Part shown: in pieces, positions 192 through 38,872 of the stretch
Position numbering within the stretch: the first letter of the stretch is position 1
Layout: each line of letters opens with the position of its first letter
DNA from: a virus
DNA length: 42,616 bases
Virus record (IMG/VR): IMGVR_UViG_3300045988_017468
Direction: 5' to 3' (one strand)
Program-made: the position numbers and the translations under genes
Notes under the pieces: generated by a model
Told to the model about the DNA's origin: nothing
The model's database searches: none
The model's input: the letters and a program-made list of their open reading frames with translations, nothing else

Positions 192-281
192 GCTTCGACC
201 TCTTTTCTTTGATGTGTGCCAGCCGCTCCGGCTGTCTTGCATCCCAGCGCTGTTCAAGCCAGCGCTTGTTGTAGTGCTTCT

Positions 282-1127
282 TCACGGCTTCCACTCCACA
301 AACTCGCCATTTTTGAGGGTATAGTAAACTTTTTCTCTGATGGCAGAACCATCCACGCGGGCCATTTTGGCACAGATCATGTGGCCGTCATCATCGTACT
401 CGGTCAGTACGATGTAGCAGCCCAGTGCGCCGCACGCCTTACCGCAAGCGCCGTTTACAACGGCGATGCTATCTTTTCCGTCTGCTTTTGCGCTGCAATA
501 AGCCCCAGTGGCGGCCGCCGTGCTGGAATCGCCGCTGGAACCCGCCGTGCTGCAATAGCCGCTGGAACCAGCCGTGCTGGAATAGCCGCTGGAACCCGCC
601 GTGCTGGAATCGCCGCTGGAACCAGCCGTGCTGCAATAGCCGCTGGAACCAGCCGTGCTGGAATAGCCGCTGGAACCAGCCGTGCTGCAATAGCCGCTGG
701 AACCAGCCGTGCTGCAATAGCCGCTGGAACCAGCCGTGCTGGAATTGCCGCTGGAACCCGCCGTGCTGGAATTGCCGCTGGAAAAAGGCTCTTTGCCCTT
801 CACCCGATTAAAAACGGCATTCACCGTAGCTTTTACCAGCCCTGCAAAATTCACCTCACCTTTCACCGTCAGCTCAGTGCAGGCCAGTTTACTGTCCTCT
901 TCGCTTTTATCCACGTTCCCGCCGCACTCGACCTCAAAAAAGCGCGGGCTATCATTCAACGGGTAGTAGTGCAGCACATCCAGAGGGTTCTCGCAGGCGT
1001 GCATACCAGCGCGGCAGCAGTCGGCCTTGTCCTCATGGTAGGTCTTGCCCACCTCATACTGCTTGCCACGGCACTGCATATTTTTGTCCATGGCCTTATA
1101 TGCGATAATCTTCTCACTCATGCTCAT
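282..1127 (-). CDS. DUF7666-like phage protein with a central 9-aa tandem-repeat (solenoid-like) region
   Basis: ORF track, 281 aa. The N-terminus YKAMDKNMQCRGKQYEVGKTYHED...CRAGMHACENPLDVLHYYP matches a family I recall in phages. It is followed by 10 SSG[YND][SC]STAG repeats and a conserved-looking C-terminus (IVLTEYDDDG...). The SD is AAGGAAGG; the true start may be the second ATG at 1121. Confidence 0.75.
   Translation of the reverse strand: MSMSEKIIAYKAMDKNMQCRGKQYEVGKTYHEDKADCCRAGMHACENPLDVLHYYPLNDSPRFFEVECGGNVDKSEEDSKLACTELTVKGEVNFAGLVKATVNAVFNRVKGKEPFSSGNSSTAGSSGNSSTAGSSGYCSTAGSSGYCSTAGSSGYSSTAGSSGYCSTAGSSGDSSTAGSSGYSSTAGSSGYCSTAGSSGDSSTAAATGAYCSAKADGKDSIAVVNGACGKACGALGCYIVLTEYDDDGHMICAKMARVDGSAIREKVYYTLKNGEFVEWKP
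513..782. repeat. 10 x 27-bp tandem repeat inside the CDS
   Basis: Unit gccgctggaaccNgccgtgctgNaatN. Copies differ almost only at the first base of two codons (Y/N/D and S/C). Confidence 0.95.
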
Positions 1128-1174
1128 AACCTTCCTTATTGGTGTGTTTCTTCTGTGCAGGCATGGTCAGCGCC

Positions 1175-1369
1175 TCACTTCTTGGAGCTGCCAAATGGGC
1201 CGCAATAGCTGCCAATGAGCAAGAGCGCGATCCACGCCGCCGTTCCGACGGCCCAGGTGAACGTCCAGTGCATCAATGCGCAGATGGCCCACACGGCGGC
1301 GCAGGTAACGCCCCACGAGATGCCCAGAAGGACGGCAAACGCGATGATGATCGATAGTACTTCACCCAT
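1175..1369 (-). CDS. Small membrane protein with two predicted TM helices
   Basis: ORF track, 64 aa, very hydrophobic. The ATG overlaps the upstream stop (ATGGGTGA). Confidence 0.6.
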   Translation of the reverse strand: MGEVLSIIIAFAVLLGISWGVTCAAVWAICALMHWTFTWAVGTAAWIALLLIGSYCGPFGSSKK

Positions 1370-3274: not shown

Positions 3275-3625
3275 ATGAGCACTTTTTACGACAACTATAT
3301 AAAGCTGTGTGCTGTTCACGACAAATCCCCAACTGCGGTATCAAAAGAAATTGGCCTTTCTAACGCAGCTGCCAGTGGCTGGAAAAACGGCAAAAAGCCT
3401 TCTGCGGTTACAAAGCAAAAGCTTGCCGACTACTTTGGTGTCACGGTCGAAGAGTTGACCGGCGAAGAGCAAAAAGAAAAGCCCAACGCCTTAGATGGCA
3501 TTGAGCTTGAAAAATTGTCACCAGCCCGCCGTGCGCTGCTGGAAGCGCTGGAGGGCATGGATGACGAAAACATTATGAAAATTGTTCGGATTGCTCAGGC
3601 AGTTAAAAAGGAGCTTCCAGAGTGA
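3275..3625 (+). CDS. XRE/CI-like HTH repressor without a peptidase domain
   Basis: Start moved to Met9 (MSTFYDNYIKLC...) 8 nt after AAGGAG. HTH segment PTAVSKEIGLSNAAASGWKNGKKP. Divergent from the cro-like gene. Confidence 0.8.
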   Translation: MSTFYDNYIKLCAVHDKSPTAVSKEIGLSNAAASGWKNGKKPSAVTKQKLADYFGVTVEELTGEEQKEKPNALDGIELEKLSPARRALLEALEGMDDENIMKIVRIAQAVKKELPE

Positions 3626-27676: not shown

Positions 27677-27906
27677 GGCTTATCCCTCGGTTCTCGCTTT
27701 TTCTTTAAGATGCGACCGCACTCAGGGCAGAAATTCAGCGGCCCGGCCCGGTGAGTAATAACGCCGCGCACGCCCATGTGTTTCCGGTGCTTTTTGGTGA
27801 TGAGGCTTACTTGGTAGGTGGTATATAAATCAGGATCATCTTTTGGCTCGTGTTCTTTCCACCACTTGAGCCGCTCGCAAAATTTGCAAGGCTTCTTCTC
27901 ATCCAT
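27673..27906 (-). CDS. Small zinc-ribbon protein
   Basis: ATG at 27906, 9 nt after AAGGAGG. CKFC...CPEC motif. Confidence 0.6.
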   Translation of the reverse strand: MDEKKPCKFCERLKWWKEHEPKDDPDLYTTYQVSLITKKHRKHMGVRGVITHRAGPLNFCPECGRILKKKREPRDKP

Positions 27907-28933
27907 GCTTTGCAACCTCCTTCTTTCTCTTGCGCTCTTCCGCCCACCACATTTGCTCTTTCTCTTTGCCGCCCTTGGATTTATACCACTCGGTGTAATC
28001 CATGACGGGGGTGGTCTCTTTGGTCACATTGTCTCGCTGCATGGCGTTCTGCCGGGGATACTTGCCCAGCGCAGAGGACAGCACACAGCGGCAGTGGTAG
28101 ACCATCTCCGGGGCGGCGTTTGGGTCGCCGGGGCGCTGAATCTCGTAACCCATGACCTTGAAAGGCTCGTCAAGCTCTGCCGTCTGCTGGTCAAGCAGGC
28201 GGTGCATTTCACGGGTGCGGTAGTCGTGGGTAGAGTTCCAGCGCTTTTTGACCTCGATGCCCAAAGCCTGGGCGTTGCGCATCTGCTGCAAAGCCCCGGC
28301 GTTTTGGGCGCTGGTAAGGGCTGTGATGGCGTTGTTCATGGCCCAGTGGATCTCCGTGTCTGCCATGCCGTTGACGGCCTGCACGGCGATGTCGTGGACG
28401 CTCTTGCCCTGCACGATGCCCTGCATGACGTAGCGGTTGAACACCCTGGCGTCATAGGTGCGGTTGCTCTCGCTCTTGATGCGCTTATTGGGCACCATGC
28501 GGGGGTTCTCTTTCAGCAGGAGTTTAACCGATTCGGTGTTGTACAGGGTCAGCCCGAACGTCACGCCTGCGGCCTGTTCCAGCTCGTAGAAAGCCCAGTT
28601 TGCGCCAAAGGAAAAGATGTTGTATTGCTCGTCCCGGGCTAGCTTGTAGGCCGTCTCTTGGGCCGTGGTGCAGGTCTGGGTGATGCCGTCAAGCTTGGCG
28701 TGCATCAAATCGGACTGAAAGACCTGATTTTGCAGCCAGATGCGGTAATCCTCTTCGGTGATCTCGCCTGCATCCAGCTGTGCCCGTTTGCGCTCGTCCA
28801 GCGCTTTGTACTTTGCCAGAAACTCGGTAAGCTGCTCCTGCATCTCCCGGCGGGCAGTGCCGTACACCCGGAGGATGCGGCGGCGCAGGCGGTTCAGCTG
28901 GCGGGTAGAGATGCGGTCACGGTCAGAAATCAC
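27899..28933 (-). CDS. Minor head protein (Mu F / SPP1 gp7-like)
   Basis: GTG start coupled to the portal stop. Motif HDYRTREMHRLLDQQ...PGDPNAAPEMVYHCRCV. Confidence 0.85.
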   Translation of the reverse strand: MISDRDRISTRQLNRLRRRILRVYGTARREMQEQLTEFLAKYKALDERKRAQLDAGEITEEDYRIWLQNQVFQSDLMHAKLDGITQTCTTAQETAYKLARDEQYNIFSFGANWAFYELEQAAGVTFGLTLYNTESVKLLLKENPRMVPNKRIKSESNRTYDARVFNRYVMQGIVQGKSVHDIAVQAVNGMADTEIHWAMNNAITALTSAQNAGALQQMRNAQALGIEVKKRWNSTHDYRTREMHRLLDQQTAELDEPFKVMGYEIQRPGDPNAAPEMVYHCRCVLSSALGKYPRQNAMQRDNVTKETTPVMDYTEWYKSKGGKEKEQMWWAEERKRKKEVAKHG

Positions 28934-30318
28934 GTTTCATCACCGTCTCCCTCCCCCTCGCCCACGGTCTCCCGTGTTGCGCTCTCAGCCATCAGCGCGG
29001 CCTTGGCCTGCTCCTTTTGTTCCGGGGTGAGGTTGGGCAGCAGGTCGATGGCCATGTCCTGTCCGATGATGGCGGCCTCGGAAATCACCATGCTGACCTG
29101 CTCAGCTGTGTTGGTGATCTTGCTGCGGTTGAATGTCGGCATAGCGTTTTCAAAGCCAGCCAGTGCGCAGATCTGCCGGATGAACGGCTTGACCTGCGCC
29201 TCGAAGTCGTCTGCGTTCTGGTTCAGCGGCTCATAGGCTGCATCCAGATGGTCGTTGGTGCTGTCTGCACTCACGCAGTGCACATCCAGACCGCCGAAGT
29301 CCTCATACACCCGGGTGTGGAGCAGCTCCAACAGAGCCTGCCGGGCCGTCACAGGGATCTCGGTGGTGTAGGGGGTGATCTTGCCGCCCTCGCTGGTGTC
29401 TGCGCCTGCAATGTGGTACAGATTCAGCTTGACAAGGAACTCCTGCAGTTCGTCATCGGTCATGCCGTTGAAGTTCTCGCACAGCCAGTAGATCTGCGAA
29501 AAGTCCTGCAGGTCATTGCAGAAGCCAGACATCACCAGATCGGTGTTGTCAATGTAGGCTTTCAAGCCCACAAGGGTGCTCTGGTGTAGGTCTGAGCCCC
29601 ACAGCGGCACAATGGGAAGAGCGCTGTAGTTTTCGCCCTCTACGCTTTCCAGCCCGCCGCCGGGTGTGGTGACGGTCACGCTCTTGTATGCCTGCTTCGG
29701 CGTTGTCTCTTGCATCACATTGCCGATTTTGCTTTCCGTGTACTCAGTGAAGCCGTCTAGCTCGTACAGGATATAGTGCATATCTGTGTCCGGGTTCAGC
29801 CGCCAGAAGCGCACACCCGCCTGCAAAAGGCTTGTCTTCTCATCGTACAGGGGCGCAAACTCGGTCAACTTGAAAACCACCAAGTGGTCGTTGTTCCAGA
29901 ATCCGAAGCTCTCGCCGTGGATCAGGGCGAAATATCCGGCCTTCTGGATCTGCTCATCAAAGTTCTGCCCCAGTCTGTCCTTGTCCACGCCCTCGTCTGC
30001 AAAGACCACACCGTTGCCGAGGGAGTAGGTCGCCCGCTGCTTGTTGAGCCGCCGGAAAAGATTGCTCTTGACCATATCTGGGTGTGGGGTGTCTTGCTTG
30101 GTGTTTTTGGATAGGCGCTTCAGCATCAAAGCGTAAGCCTGCGCAAAGCGTTCAGCCCCCGGGTTTTTCTGGGCATCGTACAGGTCGGCGTCCAGAGCCA
30201 TCTTGTAGGGCTTGGAAGCGCAGTGTTGCTGCACGAACCGCCGGATGAAATCAGGCTGTTCCCCGGCGGCTTGCGCCTGCTGAAATGTCTGGAATGTGTA
30301 TACAGTGCTCAAAATCAA
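28930..30318 (-). CDS. Portal protein (SPP1 gp6-like)
   Basis: 462 aa directly after terL, with an acidic C-terminus. TTG start; the exact start is uncertain. Confidence 0.85.
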   Translation of the reverse strand: MILSTVYTFQTFQQAQAAGEQPDFIRRFVQQHCASKPYKMALDADLYDAQKNPGAERFAQAYALMLKRLSKNTKQDTPHPDMVKSNLFRRLNKQRATYSLGNGVVFADEGVDKDRLGQNFDEQIQKAGYFALIHGESFGFWNNDHLVVFKLTEFAPLYDEKTSLLQAGVRFWRLNPDTDMHYILYELDGFTEYTESKIGNVMQETTPKQAYKSVTVTTPGGGLESVEGENYSALPIVPLWGSDLHQSTLVGLKAYIDNTDLVMSGFCNDLQDFSQIYWLCENFNGMTDDELQEFLVKLNLYHIAGADTSEGGKITPYTTEIPVTARQALLELLHTRVYEDFGGLDVHCVSADSTNDHLDAAYEPLNQNADDFEAQVKPFIRQICALAGFENAMPTFNRSKITNTAEQVSMVISEAAIIGQDMAIDLLPNLTPEQKEQAKAALMAESATRETVGEGEGDGDET

Positions 30319-31562
30319 TCCCTCAGTTTCACAAGGCGCTTTGTGCGCACGAAATAGCGGATAGCGTCCATGCAGTGGTCGTTTACCTTCAGCACGGTGT
30401 CGTCTTTATCCGGGTCCCAAGCGTACACGCCGAACTCTTCCAGCGTGTGCTTGCAGTCCTTGTATATTTTCAGCCGCCCGGTCTGCAGCATGGTCTGCAC
30501 GTCCAGAATGCCGCTCAGAACGTCATTATTTGCGGGGGTCTGGGTAAAGCCATTCTTGCGCAGTTCCGTAATCAGGGGCAGGGCAGAGGGGTCCACAATG
30601 ATCCTCTCCGGCTTGAGACCATCCAGCCACGCCTTGAGGTCTGCAACATACTCGCCCACGGTCTTTTGCCGCTTCTGTTCCCGGCCGCTGTAGTAGTACT
30701 CCCGGGTGACGATCCAGCAGTCTGCATCTGCCTGCTTCTGGAACAGCAGAAAGGTCGTTGCGTTCTGGGTGCCAAAGTCACACGCCACATAAGTGCTCTT
30801 TGGAGACAGCGCCGGCAGCACATCAACGACGTGCTTCTTGCGGTCGAACATGTCATAAACAAGGCCCTCCGCCACCGTCCACAGGCCCAGAATGTAGCGC
30901 TGATAGAAAACGCCGCTGTACTGGCTGCGGTATCTGGCCTTGATGTCCTCGGAAAGTGACAAGTTGTCGTCCATCGTGAAATGGAGATACATCATCCTGC
31001 GGGAACGGCATTTCCGCACCCATTCCAGATAAAACCAGTGCTGCGGGCTGCCCGGGTTGCAGTTGAACCAGAACTTTGACCCGGTGACAGAGCAACGGGC
31101 TGTGGCCTGATTGACGAAGCTCTGCGGCATCAGGGCCACCTCGTCGAAGAATGCCCCGGCAAGGGTGATGCCCTGGATCAGGTCCTGGCTGCTCTCGTCC
31201 TTGCCGCCGAAAAAGTAAAACTCGTTGGTTCTGCCGCTCTTGCTGACGGTCATGCAGTTTTCTGCCCGGTGCTCCTTGACGTTGTAGCCACGGGCTGCAA
31301 GCTGCTGCTTGAGCGTGCCCATCACGTTGCGCCGGAAGCTGGCGATGGTCTTGCCACACATGGCAAACTGCTGGCCGCTGTAGCAGGTCATAGCCCACTG
31401 GACGAAAGAGAAGCTCATGGCAAAGGTCTTGCCAGAGCGGATAGCGCCATCGGCAATGATGCCGTTGTAGCCGCTGTATGCGCTCTGCGGTGTCCACCAG
31501 CAAAGAACCATCTTTTGCCGCTGGCTGAGGGCTTTCCAGCGAAAACCGTTACTTTTCCGCAT
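30315..31562 (-). CDS. terL: Terminase large subunit (PBSX/Terminase_3-like)
   Basis: Start at Met13 (MRKSNGFRWK...). Walker A motif DGAIRSGKT. Overlaps the terS end. Confidence 0.93.
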   Translation of the reverse strand: MRKSNGFRWKALSQRQKMVLCWWTPQSAYSGYNGIIADGAIRSGKTFAMSFSFVQWAMTCYSGQQFAMCGKTIASFRRNVMGTLKQQLAARGYNVKEHRAENCMTVSKSGRTNEFYFFGGKDESSQDLIQGITLAGAFFDEVALMPQSFVNQATARCSVTGSKFWFNCNPGSPQHWFYLEWVRKCRSRRMMYLHFTMDDNLSLSEDIKARYRSQYSGVFYQRYILGLWTVAEGLVYDMFDRKKHVVDVLPALSPKSTYVACDFGTQNATTFLLFQKQADADCWIVTREYYYSGREQKRQKTVGEYVADLKAWLDGLKPERIIVDPSALPLITELRKNGFTQTPANNDVLSGILDVQTMLQTGRLKIYKDCKHTLEEFGVYAWDPDKDDTVLKVNDHCMDAIRYFVRTKRLVKLRD

Positions 31563-32025
31563 TGTCGTCCTCTTCCTTTGGCAGCATCTCCACGTCATCC
31601 GGCGGGCTGAGGTCTGCGGCGGCGCTCAGTGCCTCCACAAGACCATCGTCCGGGACTTCTATGCTATTCTGGTCTCCCAGCATGGCAAACTTGTCCACGA
31701 TGGTGCCGAAGGCCGTGGACAGCTGCGGCAGCGTCGCTTCTGCAATTTTGTCCGGGTCGGCCATCGCTTTGAGATACAGCCCGAGAAGATCCTGCGCTTC
31801 CACGCTTTTGCTGCCTAAGTAGGAAAGCATGTCCTGCGTGTTCTGCTCTTTTTTTTGGGCGCACAAATCCGCACACTTGGGATTGTCTTTCACGATTTTC
31901 CGCACGGTGCTTTCTGCCACGTCGTTCAGCTTGGAGGCTCTGGCGTAGCTCTGCAGCTGCACATAGTCAGCAACGATCTTCTTTTTTTGCTTATCTGTCA
32001 GCCGCTTTGCGCTCACCGCCACCAC
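31549..32025 (-). CDS. terS: Terminase small subunit
   Basis: N-terminal HTH-like segment LTDKQKKKIVADYVQLQSYARASKLNDVAESTVRKIV and an acidic tail. GTG start at 32025 or 32016. Confidence 0.75.
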   Translation of the reverse strand: MVAVSAKRLTDKQKKKIVADYVQLQSYARASKLNDVAESTVRKIVKDNPKCADLCAQKKEQNTQDMLSYLGSKSVEAQDLLGLYLKAMADPDKIAEATLPQLSTAFGTIVDKFAMLGDQNSIEVPDDGLVEALSAAADLSPPDDVEMLPKEEDDNAEK

Positions 32026-32056: not shown

Positions 32057-32500
32057 TCACTTTTCCATACCTCTGCCAAACCACTTATTTAAGTTTTTGT
32101 CTGCGCGTTTGCGTGCGCGTTCGTATGTAGAAGAGGTAATTTCTGTTTCGCTGCGGCCTTTGCCGTTTGGCTTGCTAGAGTTTCTGTATTCTTCAAGCGA
32201 CTTATACTTGAATTTTTTTGCTCTTTTAGTTCTTTTTTCCCAGTCTGCTTTTATTCCTGTTGCACGCTCTTTTAGATTGTCCTCAACCCATTTTTGTGGA
32301 TTTTCTCCGCCTCTGTTTTTTATTTTGTTAAGAAGAAGTTCTTTTGCCATCCAGTCAGGAGTATCTTTAACTTTCATATTGGATTCATATTCCATTTTTG
32401 CAAGTTCTAGTGTTTCCTGCGATGTTTTATATCCCCCTCCGATGGAAATGTTACCAAAAGAGGATTTTCTTGCTGAACTTCCGCTTCCACGTTTGCTCAT
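32057..32500 (-). CDS. Basic Lys-rich protein, paralog B, N-terminus MSKRGSGSSAR
   Basis: ORF track, 147 aa; AAGGAGG SD; AT-richer than the flanks. Confidence 0.7.
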   Translation of the reverse strand: MSKRGSGSSARKSSFGNISIGGGYKTSQETLELAKMEYESNMKVKDTPDWMAKELLLNKIKNRGGENPQKWVEDNLKERATGIKADWEKRTKRAKKFKYKSLEEYRNSSKPNGKGRSETEITSSTYERARKRADKNLNKWFGRGMEK

Positions 32501-32512
32501 TGCGCATCCTCC

Positions 32513-32923
32513 TTACTTACGGCGCTTTTCCCACTTTGGGTTGTCCACTCCAAGTTCTTTGAGAATAATATCCCTTGCGAAAGTCGTTTGCTTTGATGTA
32601 AATTCGGGCTTTGGGTAAGCATCAATATCGTGTAACACAACCGCTTTACTAATTCTTTCTTCTACCGCTTGTGTAGCAACCCAAGACTTTTTTAACCCTT
32701 CAAACGTGTAATTCTTTGCACCAGCGAAGTTTGGGTTGTTTAGAACTCGTTCTGCTTGCTCCGCATAGTTTTTGTATGTTTCTGTTTCTCTTACAAGCTT
32801 TACTGCCTGCGCGATCTGCTTACTTTCGATAGATGAAAATCCAGCCTCTTTCGCTTCGTTATAGTCCGTTTTTGAATAGTTGCCCCCCGCTCTCGCGGAG
32901 CTGCCCGAACCTCGTTTACTCAC
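32513..32923 (-). CDS. Basic protein, paralog A, N-terminus (M)SKRGSGSSAR
   Basis: GTG start 7 nt after GAGGAGG; 136 aa; AT-richer than the flanks. Confidence 0.7.
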   Translation of the reverse strand: MSKRGSGSSARAGGNYSKTDYNEAKEAGFSSIESKQIAQAVKLVRETETYKNYAEQAERVLNNPNFAGAKNYTFEGLKKSWVATQAVEERISKAVVLHDIDAYPKPEFTSKQTTFARDIILKELGVDNPKWEKRRK

Positions 32924-33539
32924 GGTATTGCCTCCTCTCGTATTGAAATGGTTTAATTTTGGTCACGTTCCAGTCGAATTCTGCCGGGCATTTCCCATAC
33001 CACAAAATGCTGCTCGGCTGCAGCACTTCCAGCGCCTTGCGGCAGTGCTTGGCGAAACATTCCGCTTCGTATGGGTCAGACTGCGTTCCGTGGCTGGAAA
33101 TGCTCACGATAGCGTTTCTCGGTTCTCCATCAAAGCACCAGTCATAGCTTTGCTCACCGCACCAGCAGAGCGTTGGAATCACATGGATTCCGTGGGCTTG
33201 CCAGTAGGCAGCCAGCCAGTGCTTTTTGTAGTGCATAAAAAGCTGCACTGCAAGCGGCATGTCGCTGTACAGAGAAAAATCAGGAGAACATACAGCACCG
33301 AACTGCTGCAAAAGCGGAATGTATTTGTCAGGGTTGTTCCAGAACCGTTCAAACTGGTAATCGTCCTTGTAAAAATGCACGCCCTTTGTGGCCTTGTCTT
33401 TGGCAGTCAGTGCATAGTTGACAGGAATCCATTCCAGCTTGTCGATTCGGATGTCCGTTTCTGGCTTGATCGCGGGGATGCCGTACTTTCCTACGCCTGG
33501 AAAAATCATTTTCTCGGTGTTTTCCATCGGCAGAATCAT
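32916..33539 (-). CDS. DUF4417-like protein
   Basis: Start at Met32 (MILPMENTEK...) behind GGAAGGGA. Motif VHFYKDDYQFERFWNNPDKYIPLLQQFGAVCSPDFSLYSDMP matches my recollection of DUF4417. Confidence 0.7.
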   Translation of the reverse strand: MILPMENTEKMIFPGVGKYGIPAIKPETDIRIDKLEWIPVNYALTAKDKATKGVHFYKDDYQFERFWNNPDKYIPLLQQFGAVCSPDFSLYSDMPLAVQLFMHYKKHWLAAYWQAHGIHVIPTLCWCGEQSYDWCFDGEPRNAIVSISSHGTQSDPYEAECFAKHCRKALEVLQPSSILWYGKCPAEFDWNVTKIKPFQYERRQYRE

Positions 33540-33601
33540 GGCATTCCCTTCCGTGCAAAAGAAAAACCGCCCGGAAATCCGAACGGTCAAAATATCGAAT
33601 A

Positions 33602-33737
33602 TGCCGTCAGCCGGATTTGAACCGGCACCCACGGAATGGATGTGCGCAGTGGTTGGCTATGCAGTGATGTTCCCGTGGTGTCACCAGCGTTGTCCCGCCT
33701 TAAATAGGCGGCGCTCTGCCAATTGAGCTATAGCGGC
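33602..33737 (-). ncRNA. 136-nt tRNA-like gene carrying a ~67-nt insertion in the variable region
   Basis: Hand fold: acceptor GCCGCTA/TGACGGC (1 mismatch), D arm GCTC-AATTGGCA-GAGC, anticodon arm CCGCC-UAUUUAA-GGCGG (A at position 33), T arm GCCGG-TTCAAAT-CCGGC. The insert contains a 6-bp stem CCACGG/CCGTGG. Confidence 0.35.
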
Positions 33738-33860: not shown

Positions 33861-33936
33861 TGGCACTCCAGGCAGGGCTCGAACCTGCAACCTGCGGTTT
33901 TGGAGACCGCTGCTCTACCACTTGAGCTGCCGGAGT
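33861..33936 (-). tRNA. tRNA-Trp (anticodon CCA)
   Basis: Canonical 76-nt cloverleaf by hand. Acceptor ACTCCGG/CTGGAGT with A1-U72 and discriminator G73, anticodon arm GCGGT-CUCCAAA-ACCGC, T arm GCAGG-TTCGAGC-CCTGC, encoded CCA. Confidence 0.93.
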
Positions 33937-37904: not shown

Positions 37905-38079
37905 GTGTCAAAACCTCCGTTCTCTTGACATGGATGTCCCGGTACTCCGGGTAGTGGTCGCCCGCCATCTGGCAGGCGTGAAATTCTGCGGCCTGCTGGC
38001 TGCTGGCGGTCAGACGGTAGGTCAGGGCCGCGTCTCCTACCGGGCCGCTGCACAGCACAACAACATGATATTTAGGCAC
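37897..38079 (-). CDS. Small hypothetical protein (60 aa)
   Basis: GTG 6 nt after AAGGAGAGG, inside the longer track ORF 37897..38271. Translationally coupled at both ends. Confidence 0.45.
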   Translation of the reverse strand: MPKYHVVVLCSGPVGDAALTYRLTASSQQAAEFHACQMAGDHYPEYRDIHVKRTEVLTHG

Positions 38080-38872
38080 TCTTCGCCTCTCCTTTCTTAC
38101 GCAAAGGCCTGCGATTTGCAGCGTTTTTGAGGAAATCGGGGGCTTTTGCTGCATCTTCTGGGGGACGCGTGACCAATTTGTCACGCCCCGCCCCGATGGG
38201 GTTTGTCCTGCGGTACTCTTCCACAGACGTGCAGCCCTGCCGGGCGGCTTCCGCCAGCGCCTTGCGGACATAGGCCCAGCTGTGGCCGCCCAGATCCTCG
38301 CACTTGCGGATGATCTCGGTCACAAGGTCAGCGCCCAGGCGCTCAACGTAAACGGGCAGCTCTTTCTTGCCTGTTTCGCTCAGCTTTCCGATACGGTCCC
38401 GGAATTCTTCAAAAACAATGGTCGTCGTCAAGTCGTCTCGCGCATCCGCGCGCGTGTCGGAGTCTACGATAGTAGACGACGACTGTACTTTGTACTTTGT
38501 ACTTTGACCTTTGTACTTTGGTGTGCATTTGGTTTCTGCCGGTTTCTCCGGAAAACCATTTGGTTTCTCTCGGTTTTCTGCAATAACCATTTGGTTTTTT
38601 TCGGTTTTCTTGGGTCTGCCGCCTTTACTGCCGGATTCTCTATGAGACAAAACGGAACGTTGATACGTTTTAATATTCTCGTCCATGAACGGTCGAAGTG
38701 CTTCAAAAGCCATCTGTTCCAGAGGTTCCAGTCCATCCGGTTCCTCTCCGTGCTCCACATACCGCCGCATCTTGGTGATGGTATTTTTGTACTGCTCAGG
38801 TGGAAGAATATCCAAAATCACAAATTTGTCGAATGGAATCATCAACGCTTTCGGCCTGATTTCATCGTCCAC
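38072..38872 (-). CDS. Replisome organizer / DnaD-domain replication initiation protein
   Basis: GTG start behind GGAGGTG. C-terminal LPVYVERLGADLVTEIIRKCEDLGGHSWAYVRKALAEAARQG is DnaD/DnaB_2-like. The gene contains the iteron block. Confidence 0.7.
   Translation of the reverse strand: MDDEIRPKALMIPFDKFVILDILPPEQYKNTITKMRRYVEHGEEPDGLEPLEQMAFEALRPFMDENIKTYQRSVLSHRESGSKGGRPKKTEKNQMVIAENREKPNGFPEKPAETKCTPKYKGQSTKYKVQSSSTIVDSDTRADARDDLTTTIVFEEFRDRIGKLSETGKKELPVYVERLGADLVTEIIRKCEDLGGHSWAYVRKALAEAARQGCTSVEEYRRTNPIGAGRDKLVTRPPEDAAKAPDFLKNAANRRPLRKKGEAKSA
38484..38612. repeat. Iteron block inside the organizer gene: 5 x 7-bp TGTACTT plus 3 x ~25-bp CATTTGGTTT.T..CGGTTT(T)CT at 31-bp spacing
   Basis: Heptamers at 38484-38518 (one degenerate). 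Long iterons start at 38526, 38557 and 38588. The palindrome GTCTACGATAGTAGAC lies at 38462-38477. Confidence 0.8.

Follow-up and report, generated by a model that had tools for sequence, protein, structure and literature searches.

The window analyzed here is the whole 42,616-nt stretch of viral DNA in IMG/VR record IMGVR_UViG_3300045988_017468, which comes from a gut phage. Its genes of interest are arranged in the order late regulator, two tRNA-like elements, DUF4417, two small genes termed A and B, an HTH protein gene in the terS position, TerL, and an SPP1-type portal. The features most relevant to A and B are as follows:

32916-33539, minus strand: DUF4417 gene, 207-aa form (Pfam PF14386, E=2.4e-53); a GTG at 33632 would allow a longer ORF
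32916-32923, minus strand: overlap GTGAGTAA, 8 bases, where the A start codon overlaps the DUF4417 stop codon
32513-32923, minus strand: gene A, 136 aa, GTG start; leader, all-alpha body, and short basic C-terminus ending NPKWEKRRK
32882-32923, minus strand: leader of A, (M)SKRGSGSSARAGG, 14 codons, spelled as leaders directly downstream of DUF4417 typically are
32508-32512, minus strand: ribosome-binding site of B, GGAGG, directly 3' of the A stop codon; the upstream sequence is AAGTAAGGAGGATGCGCA, then ATG
32057-32500, minus strand: gene B, 147 aa, ATG start; leader, variable middle with NPQKW, and conserved C-terminal tail
32468-32500, minus strand: leader of B, MSKRGSGSSAR, 11 codons, 8 of the 10 after the start spelled unlike those of the A leader
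32060-32143, minus strand: C-terminal tail of B, EITSSTYERARKRADKNLNKWFGRGMEK, a Trp-plus-basic element also found on other bodies and in proteins with other leader types
31549-32025, minus strand: HTH protein in the terS position, with weak HTH matches only; given as context, membership in the module not being implied

The coordinates of A and B, which both lie on the minus strand, agree with a preliminary description of this DNA, as does their position at the start of the packaging/head module, where they are followed by the terS-position HTH gene, TerL, and the portal gene. The start of TerL (30315-31598; Terminase_6N, E=3.5e-15) is overlapped by the HTH protein gene, and the best relative of TerL is from a human-faecal phage, followed by those of Streptococcus and Clostridium phages. 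MuF is a separate gene (27899-28933, MuF-like, 344 aa), whose product is 81% identical to that of the MuF gene (PF04233) at a related locus, L001. One PHROG match to this 344-aa protein carries the label 'head maturation protease.'

Gene A is tightly joined to the gene before it. Its ribosome-binding site, read from the sequence as GAGAGGAGG, sits within the 3' end of DUF4417, and the DUF4417/A-type overlap also occurs in L002, L001, and L185-L190. This layout indicates that A is translationally coupled to DUF4417. A frameshift fusion of the two proteins was also considered and dropped; upstream of A its frame stays open for just 13 codons, a +1 shift would be needed, and no evidence for one was found. 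Gene B begins 12 nt after A.

Both proteins start with (M)SKRGSGSSAR, and the codon pairs that separate the two leaders (agt/agc, cga/cgt, ggt/gga, tcg/agc, ggc/gga, agc/agt, tcc/tca, and gcg/gca) are exactly those originally listed. In total there are 10 nucleotide differences, spread over these eight codons, and no amino-acid changes. Under a crude neutral model with ~25% synonymous sites, the probability that all of the leader differences would be silent is ~3e-5. Homology collapses at codon 12, and over codons 12-21 the differences (~19 nonsynonymous, ~7 synonymous) have reached saturation. A BLASTP alignment of A with B accordingly contains only the 11-mer (11/11, E=2e-4). Recent gene conversion between A and B was rejected as an origin for the common leader because 8 of its 10 codons are respelled. 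The two leaders of L001 differ from each other by ~11 synonymous changes. Judging from these spellings, the two leaders within one genome are old copies and not recent conversions.

Beyond the leader, the resemblance between A and B is limited but real. The NP.KW...EKR-like patch that had been noticed by eye is present, in that A ends with DNPKWEKRRK and B contains ENPQKW...WEKRTKR. Homologues of 180-184 aa consist of an A-type body joined to a B-type C-terminal tail, and thus A and B are distant paralogues, A being the C-terminally short form. Both proteins are basic as first reported, with pI values of 9.5 (A) and 10.0 (B), and B has a net charge of +16. Their AT-richness likewise is not solely a matter of amino-acid composition, since GC3 is 0.38 in the A body and 0.34 in B versus 0.62-0.79 in the neighboring genes. 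The A leader has a backbone-like GC3 of 0.64, which drops to 0.38 at the leader/body junction.

Family scans of A and B with Pfam, PHROGs, and NCBIfam returned nothing significant. The possibility that either is the terminase small subunit was rejected, because these scans gave no TerS match and a separate HTH protein occupies the terS position. In L189 a B-type gene does directly precede TerL, and an accessory role in packaging is thus conceivable. The IMG name of B, 'exonuclease V beta subunit,' is an automated artefact that finds no support in the family scans. An AF2 model of P0012, an A-type homologue of 184 aa that is 92% identical to A, has a body with pLDDT ~90 and disordered residues 1-16; in this model the leader looks as a docking peptide would be expected to look. 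The A-type protein gave no match in a PDB sequence profile search or in a Foldseek search with the model, and neither B nor P0012 had a match in GenBank phages by tblastn.

A search of other phages for proteins with the same leader, which had been suggested as a check, proved productive. The back-translated leader pattern matches at least 120 viral contigs encoding 128 distinct tagged proteins, and when the leader is removed the bodies fall into at least 15 clusters without detectable similarity. All of these body families are basic (pI 9.5-11.2). The same pattern found only five matches in species-representative genomes, all of them out-of-context chance matches. Among 156 loci, the tagged genes occur in the orders DUF4417>TAG, TAG>DUF4417>TAG, and DUF4417>TAG>TAG, always accompanying a DUF4417 gene.

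A set of 80 loci was also assembled on the basis of DUF4417 alone, the DUF4417 proteins being 84-99% identical to each other. In 71 of these, a gene with a strict-motif leader starts at the DUF4417 stop codon. Eight of the other nine have a variant leader there (VSKRGSDSS, MPKSGSGNNNKRGG, and others), and in one the leader is deleted. Thus, DUF4417 adjoins leader genes in essentially all 80 loci, and in 33 of them a leader gene also ends just upstream. The appearance of MPKSGSGNNNKRGG means that a DUF4417 protein 84% identical to that of the window can precede a rather different leader, a point against the handle explanation given below.

We refer to the proteins so linked as DUF4417-associated leader proteins. 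Each is basic, has an N-terminus of the form M-x(0-2)-[K/R/G]-R-G followed by small residues, and comes from a gene that directly adjoins, or overlaps with, a same-strand DUF4417 (or PLD-like) gene. Both A and B are members of this group, A through its 8-nt overlap with DUF4417 and B through its position 12 nt after A, and both are basic. The C-termini of leader proteins also have a common character; compared with control ORFs, their last 12 residues hold on average 5.1 versus 2.1 Lys+Arg, and Trp is present in 74% versus 21%. Scans of ten other body families yielded nothing significant except that the MGGRGASSG family corresponds to phrog_9479, whose function is not annotated. Among the non-significant results were weak hints of RadC/JAB and Ntox24. 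Some bodies look enzymatic, with an ATLF-like HExxH peptidase motif or a JAB-like HNHP motif.

The leader DNA is specific to the position it occupies beside DUF4417, and the same body clusters take the leader of whichever position they are in. For example, the leader DNA typical of the position just downstream of DUF4417 is joined to at least 12 unrelated bodies in other phages. These patterns, together with the break in homology and composition exactly at the leader/body junction, raise the question of whether the leader matters mainly as DNA, serving as a short 5' homology block for cassette exchange beside DUF4417 and encoding a peptide that has no role. We give this idea little credence, because the copies within the window differ at 8 of 10 codons, with even a switch between TCG and AGC for one serine, while their peptides are identical, and because related loci spell the one peptide with 54 different DNA sequences. 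Moreover, the diverged leader types of distant phages retain the same core of RG and small residues on unrelated DNA, as a DNA-only element would not. The initial proposal that selection acts on the peptide and not on the DNA is therefore well supported, both by the silent respelling between A and B and by the 54 spellings.

Such diverged leaders, of the MGGRG type, occur in the same arrangement in Streptococcus phages A25 and Str01, in Roseburia phage Jekyll, and in some mycobacteriophages, and they head proteins with the same Trp-plus-basic tail as B. In phage A25, gp22 is the DUF4417 protein and is followed by gp23, whose true start is MGGRGASSG. The A25 and Str01 genes are annotated as hypothetical only, and their deposited start codons cut off the leader. 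In mycobacteriophage IronMan, gp1 is followed by gp2, which begins MGGRGGSGG... and has a HEMGH motif with a weak ATLF-like peptidase match. Dorea phage DO134P1 has the DUF4417-leader pairing as well. The pairing is therefore old and wide. A literature search with the leader strings found nothing relevant and no published description of the system. The findings point to a system not described before, in which interchangeable phage proteins share a handle.

The Jekyll gene introduces another possible origin for the leader. In Bacillus subtilis and Staphylococcus aureus, bL27 has the N-terminal sequences MLRLDLQFF|ASKKGVGSTKNGR and ...|ASKKGVSSTKNGR, and the published Prp cleavage motif is MLxx(D/N)LQ(F/L)F'A(S/H)KK (PMC9405229). 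In comparison, the gene beside DUF4417 in Jekyll starts VVVNLQFF|GGRGGSSG, with a nine-residue Prp-type propeptide placed exactly before the leader, so that Prp cleavage would expose the same N-terminus as removal of Met does elsewhere. The leader might consequently mimic or derive from the mature N-terminal tail of bL27 together with the Firmicute Prp system, and act via a host factor (ribosome/tRNA or Prp). SKRGSGSS and the bL27 sequence SKKGVGST are identical at five of eight positions, with two conservative changes; this similarity is short, of low complexity, and statistically intractable, and Pfam scans of A and B returned no family. Jekyll is also the only such case found. The other NLQFF matches, both in the loci and in scans of two collections, are ordinary scaffold proteins, and in the window there is no Prp-type motif upstream of A or B or near any ORF start. 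In addition, the bL27 site could not serve as the anchor for all fifteen unrelated bodies, and a bL27-based explanation seems highly improbable.

Clues to what the leader does come from loci in which its neighbor is different. Where a PLD-like enzyme takes the place of DUF4417, three body families, including those of A and B, carry a MARGAGASGW... leader instead. L001 resembles the window in several proteins (A body 83%, B body 69%, MuF 81%, and portal 54% identical), yet both of its leaders are MARGAGASGWGGGSGGGGAKGRREKYS and its upstream gene encodes an unrelated PLD-like protein (PF13091, E=6e-4, which is below the curated cut-off). The third body family (GAKSLDSTLV...) exhibits the same leader switch in L283. 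At all nine loci where a full-length PLD-like gene is followed by a leader gene, the leader is of the MARGAG type. L091 and similar loci have a TerL of the L001 type and only a remnant of the PLD gene, and their leaders are of the SKRGSGSS type and adjoin DUF4417. Because the same bodies bear another leader in L001 beside a similar MuF and a related portal, the leader tracks the adjacent enzyme gene and not the capsid. Across these loci, leader type follows the neighboring enzyme rather than the head, the terminase, or the protein body. Since the first leader physically adjoins the enzyme gene, part of the association is simple linkage, which only second and upstream leaders escape. The core of RG and small residues is common to leaders found with two unrelated enzymes, which hints at a further common partner, perhaps a host factor, a capsid component, or DNA.

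These observations bear directly on an earlier suggestion that A and B are equivalents of the T4 internal proteins, packaged in the virion under a common targeting or processing tag. The suggestion holds in form, in that, following the T4 pattern (PMC3012670), a constant tag precedes unrelated small, basic, late bodies. Here there are at least 15 of these, and on this point the T4 parallel is stronger than was originally apparent. If it held in function, the leader would target proteins to the capsid or mark them for processing; A and B, like their relatives, would be packaged and injected as anti-defence cargo; and DUF4417 would be a further cargo or a loading factor. The cassette of many relatives is located within the head module, flanked by portal/MuF and the scaffold gene, and the MuF proteins of temperate phages are known to carry polymorphic toxin domains (PMC5576092). 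A late protein presumably would be useless against restriction unless it were carried over in the virion, and the enzyme-like bodies (ATLF-like HExxH peptidase, JAB-like HNHP) would also suit injected cargo.

Capsid targeting fits less well with the co-variation of leader and enzyme, in which portal, MuF, and capsid type are not followed. L002 illustrates this most clearly. Its DUF4417 is 94% and its A-type protein 92% identical to those of the window and the leader is the same, whereas its portal, TerL, ClpP protease, and HK97 capsid are unrelated to the head genes of the window. The T4 prohead protease motif is of the L/I-x-E type. No such site is present in the leader, and no dedicated prohead protease gene was found between the portal and capsid genes, which counts against the processing part of the suggestion. 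Nor does position alone prove that a protein is structural, because the MuF-scaffold site also hosts cytoplasmic anti-defence morons such as Acb2/Tad1. Virion mass spectrometry, the test first recommended, is available for one relative, Str01, and neither the leader protein APZ81907 nor the DUF4417 protein APZ81899 is among the 12 proteins detected (PMC6195288 Table 4). This is a weak negative, from a shallow and contaminated dataset. On balance, we consider a packaging tag unlikely, if still a serious contender.

The enzyme itself offers few functional clues. DUF4417 homologues are 207 aa long, and the AF2 model (pLDDT 89.8) has no PDB match at E<=0.001, the best being at E=0.018. The nearest viral fold matches outside the family are TGT/DpdA-like proteins, and these are weak (E=8e-4 and weaker, TM 0.45-0.54). 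The modeled resemblance to TGT and TIM barrels may be useful as a lead only. DUF4417 is the product of gene 1 or gene 2 in most of the ~385 mycobacteriophage records that match it and is common in phages of Streptococcus and gut Firmicutes. The four papers found to mention DUF4417 give no function for it.

The explanation that we tentatively prefer, at somewhat less than even confidence, is that the adjacent enzyme recognizes the leader as a handle and works with exchangeable partner or effector proteins. In this reading A and B are members of a polymorphic family of small, basic, late-expressed phage proteins built from three parts. The first is the disordered N-terminal leader, which stays constant (SKRGSGSS... 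or, in its general form, x-[K/G]-R-G and then small residues), the second an exchangeable body, and the third, in most cases, a C-terminal tail of Trp plus Lys/Arg that may bind nucleic acid. The leader would be recognized by the enzyme encoded alongside it, DUF4417 here and the PLD/HKD-like protein in a sister lineage, and enzyme and leader proteins would be made together via translational coupling. New bodies would enter by recombination just after the leader. The outcome would be a two-part module, in which a single nucleic-acid-type enzyme stays constant while its partner or effector proteins change. Such a module would probably act on DNA at about the time it is packaged, as part of the conflict with host defences. 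The frequent location of the cassette in the head module and its late expression suit packaging of these proteins equally well.

A more specific version of the handle proposal is a long shot. Both enzyme types belong to or resemble classes that use covalent nucleic-acid intermediates, namely PLD/HKD phosphodiester transferases and, weakly, the TGT/DpdA-like barrel in the case of DUF4417. The leader, which is rich in Ser, Gly, and Arg, might be a substrate of the enzyme, which would covalently join, or load, the exchangeable basic proteins onto phage DNA around packaging. Carried on the genome in this way, they would reach the next cell regardless of capsid type, providing head-independent delivery of polymorphic anti-defence or end-protecting proteins.

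Whichever function is correct, a widespread domain, DUF4417, gains a constant genetic partner in a leader that marks hypervariable small, basic, late proteins. A constant leader on hypervariable bodies is the kind of pattern typically seen at arms-race loci. Should the leader serve as a handle, for either enzyme coupling or packaging, it would supply a sequence rule for finding phage effector or anti-defence proteins in metagenomes, a possible cargo-loading tag, and a concrete route to testing how DUF4417 acts. The S. pyogenes phages A25 and Str01, Roseburia phage Jekyll, and IronMan-like mycobacteriophages are tractable models for this purpose.

Several known systems share features with these genes. 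Prp substrates, which include bL27 and the capsid and scaffold proteins of S. aureus phage 80alpha (PMC9405229, PMC5744158), likewise have a short N-terminal element and include Firmicute phage proteins. The residues just past the cleavage site of bL27 resemble the leader, and Jekyll has a full NLQFF propeptide in front of it. However, conservation of the leader covers the stretch after the cleavage point rather than the recognition motif, and A and B have no propeptide and so cannot be Prp substrates.

MuF polymorphic toxins (PMC5576092) are similar in that they are found in temperate phages of gut Firmicutes, combine a constant N-terminal part with a variable C-terminal effector, and are encoded near portal/MuF, as the leader proteins are in many relatives. 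Unlike these toxins, A and B lack a MuF domain (no Pfam match), their constant part is a disordered peptide of 11-27 aa instead of a folded head-protein domain, there is no evident immunity gene, and most bodies are small, helical, and basic, with no recognized toxin fold.

The internal proteins of T4 and other T-even phages (IPI, IPII, IPIII, and the polymorphic IP locus) are likewise small, mostly basic late proteins that are unrelated beyond a short, constant leader at the N-terminus; they are encoded in tandem at a variable locus and have bodies that diversify as expected of host conflict (PMC3012670). The T4 capsid targeting sequence has no sequence similarity to the leader of A and B, and neither a prohead protease nor a cleavage motif is seen here. 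In addition, the leader described here is tied to an adjacent DUF4417 or PLD-like gene and keeps its identity across unrelated head types. Finally, A25 gp22-gp23 and Str01 APZ81899-APZ81907 (phrog_9479) reproduce the arrangement of the window, in the order RusA, DUF4417, an overlapping small basic MGGRGASSG gene, terS, TerL, and portal, with another leader subtype and another body than those of A and B.

Two small adjacent genes of the window, A and B, each encode the 11-residue leader (M)SKRGSGSSAR at the N terminus. They stand in the following order on the minus strand.

RusA gene, then a late-regulator-like gene (phrog_36); minus; first in the module
33861-33936, minus: tRNA-Trp
33602-33737, minus: second tRNA-like element (Rfam tRNA model, 136 nt, 45.6 bits, E=9e-8; no ARAGORN call)
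Directly before A, minus: DUF4417, an enzyme-like gene (PF14386, E=2.4e-53)
32513-32923, minus: gene A, GTG start, 136 aa
32057-32500, minus: gene B, ATG start, 147 aa
After B, minus: gene for an HTH protein in the terS position, then TerL
After TerL, minus: SPP1-type portal, MuF-like gene, scaffold and major capsid protein

Gene A begins before DUF4417 has ended, its start overlapping the stop of that gene (GTGAGTAA), and GGAGG lies between the A stop and the B start. The tRNA-like element lies between tRNA-Trp and the DUF4417 start, where it overlaps what appears to be an N-terminal extension of the DUF4417 ORF. It is about 65 nt beyond normal tRNA length, an excess that points to an insertion or intron. 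At 33565-33588 stands a GC-rich hairpin with a T-run behind it. Elsewhere in the window, a 27-nt tandem repeat (517-783; 9.9 copies, 94% matches) lies inside overlapping long ORFs (216-1208, plus strand; 282-1127, minus strand) and probably belongs to a repetitive structural or surface protein. A DnaD-like replication initiator gene (38072-38872) contains short tandem repeats at 38484-38610, one of 7 nt (5.3 copies) and one of 31 nt (2.8 copies), which look like origin iterons.

Rechecking of the sequence bore out the codon list and gene sizes of the preliminary description, as well as its placement of the pair upstream of the packaging genes. Eight of the ten leader codons after the start differ between A and B (10 nucleotides) with no amino acid change, a TCG/AGC serine switch included. 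From codon 12 on the genes are saturated with replacements, and BLASTP aligns the 11-mer alone (E=2e-4). The NP.KW patch described earlier proved to be real homology, as homologues of 180-184 aa fuse an A-type body via DNPK to a B-type tail (EITSSTYERAxKR...WFGRGMxK). Because these proteins combine both parts, A and B are distant paralogues, with A a short form ending just past NPKW. Both genes are indeed AT-rich: the body of A has a GC3 of 0.38 and B one of 0.34, versus 0.62-0.79 across all neighbouring genes, and the leader of A has a backbone-like value of 0.64. This contrast makes the bodies look imported, with a junction immediately 3' of the leader. IMG labels the exact B protein, along with relatives of 143 aa, as "ATP-dependent exoDNAse (exonuclease V) beta subunit", a name without support in Pfam and NCBIfam scans and probably an automated artefact.

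When the leader pattern was back-translated and scanned on a viral contig collection, at least 120 stretches matched, which answers the earlier proposal to look in other phages for proteins starting MSKRGSGSS. Among the matches listed, six-frame analysis of the fetched loci yielded 128 distinct proteins that start with MSKRGSGSS[A/T]R. Stripped of their leaders, these form 15 clusters with no detectable similarity between them, and almost none of the bodies is recognised by Pfam, PHROGs or NCBIfam. Proteins of every one of the 15 clusters are basic, with pI 9.5-11.2. The last 12 residues hold 5.1 Lys/Arg (2.1 in control ORFs), and Trp occurs there in 74% of leader proteins versus 21% of control ORFs. 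An AF2 model of P0012, a 184-aa protein 92% identical to A, has a disordered leader (pLDDT ~39), a confident all-alpha body domain and a helical tail, and finds no match in the PDB. Judged by sequence, A and B are members of a large polymorphic family.

The constant neighbour of this family is DUF4417. In 156 loci, leader-bearing genes (TAG) are arranged as DUF4417>TAG, TAG>DUF4417>TAG or DUF4417>TAG>TAG. In a sample of 80 loci picked by DUF4417 alone (proteins mutually 84-99% identical), a strict-motif leader gene begins at the DUF4417 stop in 71; of the rest, eight carry a variant leader at that site and one has its leader deleted. An additional leader gene ends just upstream of DUF4417 in 33 of the 80. 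At about position 3621 of locus L262, the gene downstream of DUF4417 has lost its leader (VSK-KWVTDYSKIAAEE...) and kept its body intact, a natural leaderless variant.

Downstream of DUF4417 the leader copy reads GTGAGTAAAMGAGGTTCNGGNAGYTCYGCGAGAGCGGGCGGN (SKRGSGSSARAGG), and upstream of it ATGAGTAAACGNGGCTCTGGWAGTTCNACAAGGGCRAGY (SKRGSGSSTRASS). Identical body clusters are found at either position, each with the leader DNA of that position, so bodies are swapped by recombination immediately 3' of the leader. Across 54 leader spellings the variation is almost wholly synonymous, and copies inside one genome are old and respelled. Both features indicate selection on the peptide itself, as had been proposed, and rule out a leader that acts as DNA only.

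Comparisons between related loci reveal what the leader type follows. In a sister lineage (L001, L172, L185-L190, L283) DUF4417 is replaced by an unrelated PLD/HKD-like gene with an HKD-like motif and a PF13091 match (E=6e-4) that falls short of the curated cut-off; this gene likewise overlaps the next leader gene by 8 nt. All leader genes after it begin MARGAG[A/G]S..., continuing MARGAGASGWGGGSGGGGAKGRREKYS or a close variant in A-type, B-type and GAKSLDSTLV-type genes. Relative to the window, L001 differs in both leaders and the enzyme, with identities of 83% (A body), 69% (B body), 81% (MuF) and 54% (portal). L002 has the same leader, with DUF4417 94% and the A-type protein 92% identical, and unrelated portal and TerL. 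L091 and similar loci carry SKRGSGSS leaders by DUF4417, only a PLD remnant, and an L001-type TerL. In L283, a third body family (GAKSLDSTLV...) has switched leader as in L001. By these comparisons, leader type goes with the adjacent enzyme and not with head, terminase or body. Physical linkage cannot account for the switch of the second L001 leader, because bodies homologous to the window's own flank it on both sides.

In this PLD-like lineage, a 56-aa ORF lies behind the leader genes and directly before TerL (L001 3862-4032; L185 7466-7636; also L186-L188). It consists of a leader-like N terminus (MSALSASTGWNGGGSYGRAKDRRKLY) and a basic tail, nothing else, and is possibly a minimal member of the family. 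No separate terS candidate was seen in these phages.

Mainly because leader type tracks the adjacent enzyme, we tentatively favour, as the most likely mechanism, a leader that would act as a handle coupling exchangeable small basic proteins to the adjoining DUF4417 or PLD-like enzyme. The downstream role of these proteins is probably related to DNA or host defence. Capsid targeting, as proposed in the preliminary description, fits the head-module location and late expression, but seems rather unlikely given that the leader co-varies with the enzyme and not the head, that no dedicated prohead protease gene was found in the window, and that a cleavage motif is also absent. Furthermore, APZ81907 and APZ81899 of phage Str01 are missing from its 12-protein virion MS list (PMC6195288), although this is weak evidence. 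The two mechanisms are not exclusive, because the enzyme could act as a loader.

Close relatives carry the cassette either before terS, as in the window, or within the head module, where it sits behind portal/MuF and ahead of the scaffold gene (L006, L043, L047, L062, L019); it also occurs in prophage L002, with HK97-type portal, ClpP protease and capsid. In L186 (6395-6610) and L187 (6186-6401) the MuF-scaffold slot is held by an Acb2/Tad1-hairpin gene (anti-CBASS/Thoeris sponge), and sister phages have the DUF4417 cassette there instead. This marks the slot as an accessory-gene hotspot, and location there thus proves no structural role.

Diverged leaders (MGGRGASSG, MGGRGSASAG..., MGGRGGAGG) adjoin other DUF4417 clades, ParB-DUF4417 fusions among them, and some of these MGGRG-type proteins carry the C-terminal tail of B. 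In GenBank the pairing is present, unnoticed, in Streptococcus phage A25 gp22/gp23, and also in Str01 (APZ81899/APZ81907), Roseburia phage Jekyll, Dorea phage DO134P1 and mycobacteriophage IronMan gp1/gp2. IronMan gp2 begins MGGRGGSGG..., followed by a Gly-rich linker, an HEMGH motif and an ATLF-like match that is weak (E=0.002) and misses the Pfam cut-off. The leader motif is absent from L5. The true start of A25 gp23 (L197 2501-2911) is MGGRGASSGMSDKG; the deposited starts of this gene and of APZ81907 (L198) lie 27 nt too far downstream, dropping the MGGRGASSG leader, and the true starts overlap the DUF4417 end by 31 nt.

The Jekyll gene behind DUF4417 begins VVVNLQFF|GGRGGSSG, and in Firmicute bL27 NLQFF is the motif at which Prp cleaves (PMC9405229). 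Prp cleavage here would bare an N terminus like that left elsewhere by Met removal, and bL27 sequences (...NLQFF|ASKKGVSSTKNGR) resemble SKRGSGSSAR, so that the leader might be linked to Prp as a likeness of the bL27 tail after the cleavage site. Because Jekyll is the sole case found in the scans, we give this a low probability.

The preliminary observation as a whole is confirmed and considerably extended, to at least 15 body clusters, a DUF4417 neighbour and distant phages. A literature search found no description of the leader, and papers mentioning DUF4417 assign it no function; in the literature and databases searched, the leader/enzyme system is undescribed. For DUF4417, AF2 gives a confident model (pLDDT 89.8) in which Asp, His and Cys positions are conserved. 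Foldseek found nothing significant in the PDB (best E=0.018, TIM/EAL/TGT barrels); in a viral library, the hits after other DUF4417s are phage "queuine tRNA-ribosyltransferases" (DpdA/TGT-like; E=8e-4 and weaker, TM 0.45-0.54), a predicted resemblance that serves as a lead and not an assignment. Among known systems, the strong formal parallel is with the T4 internal proteins (PMC3012670). The part of the original interpretation that concerns form stands, and the part that concerns capsid targeting, still a hypothesis, is partly contradicted; the likeness lies in late proteins that vary behind an unchanging peptide tag.
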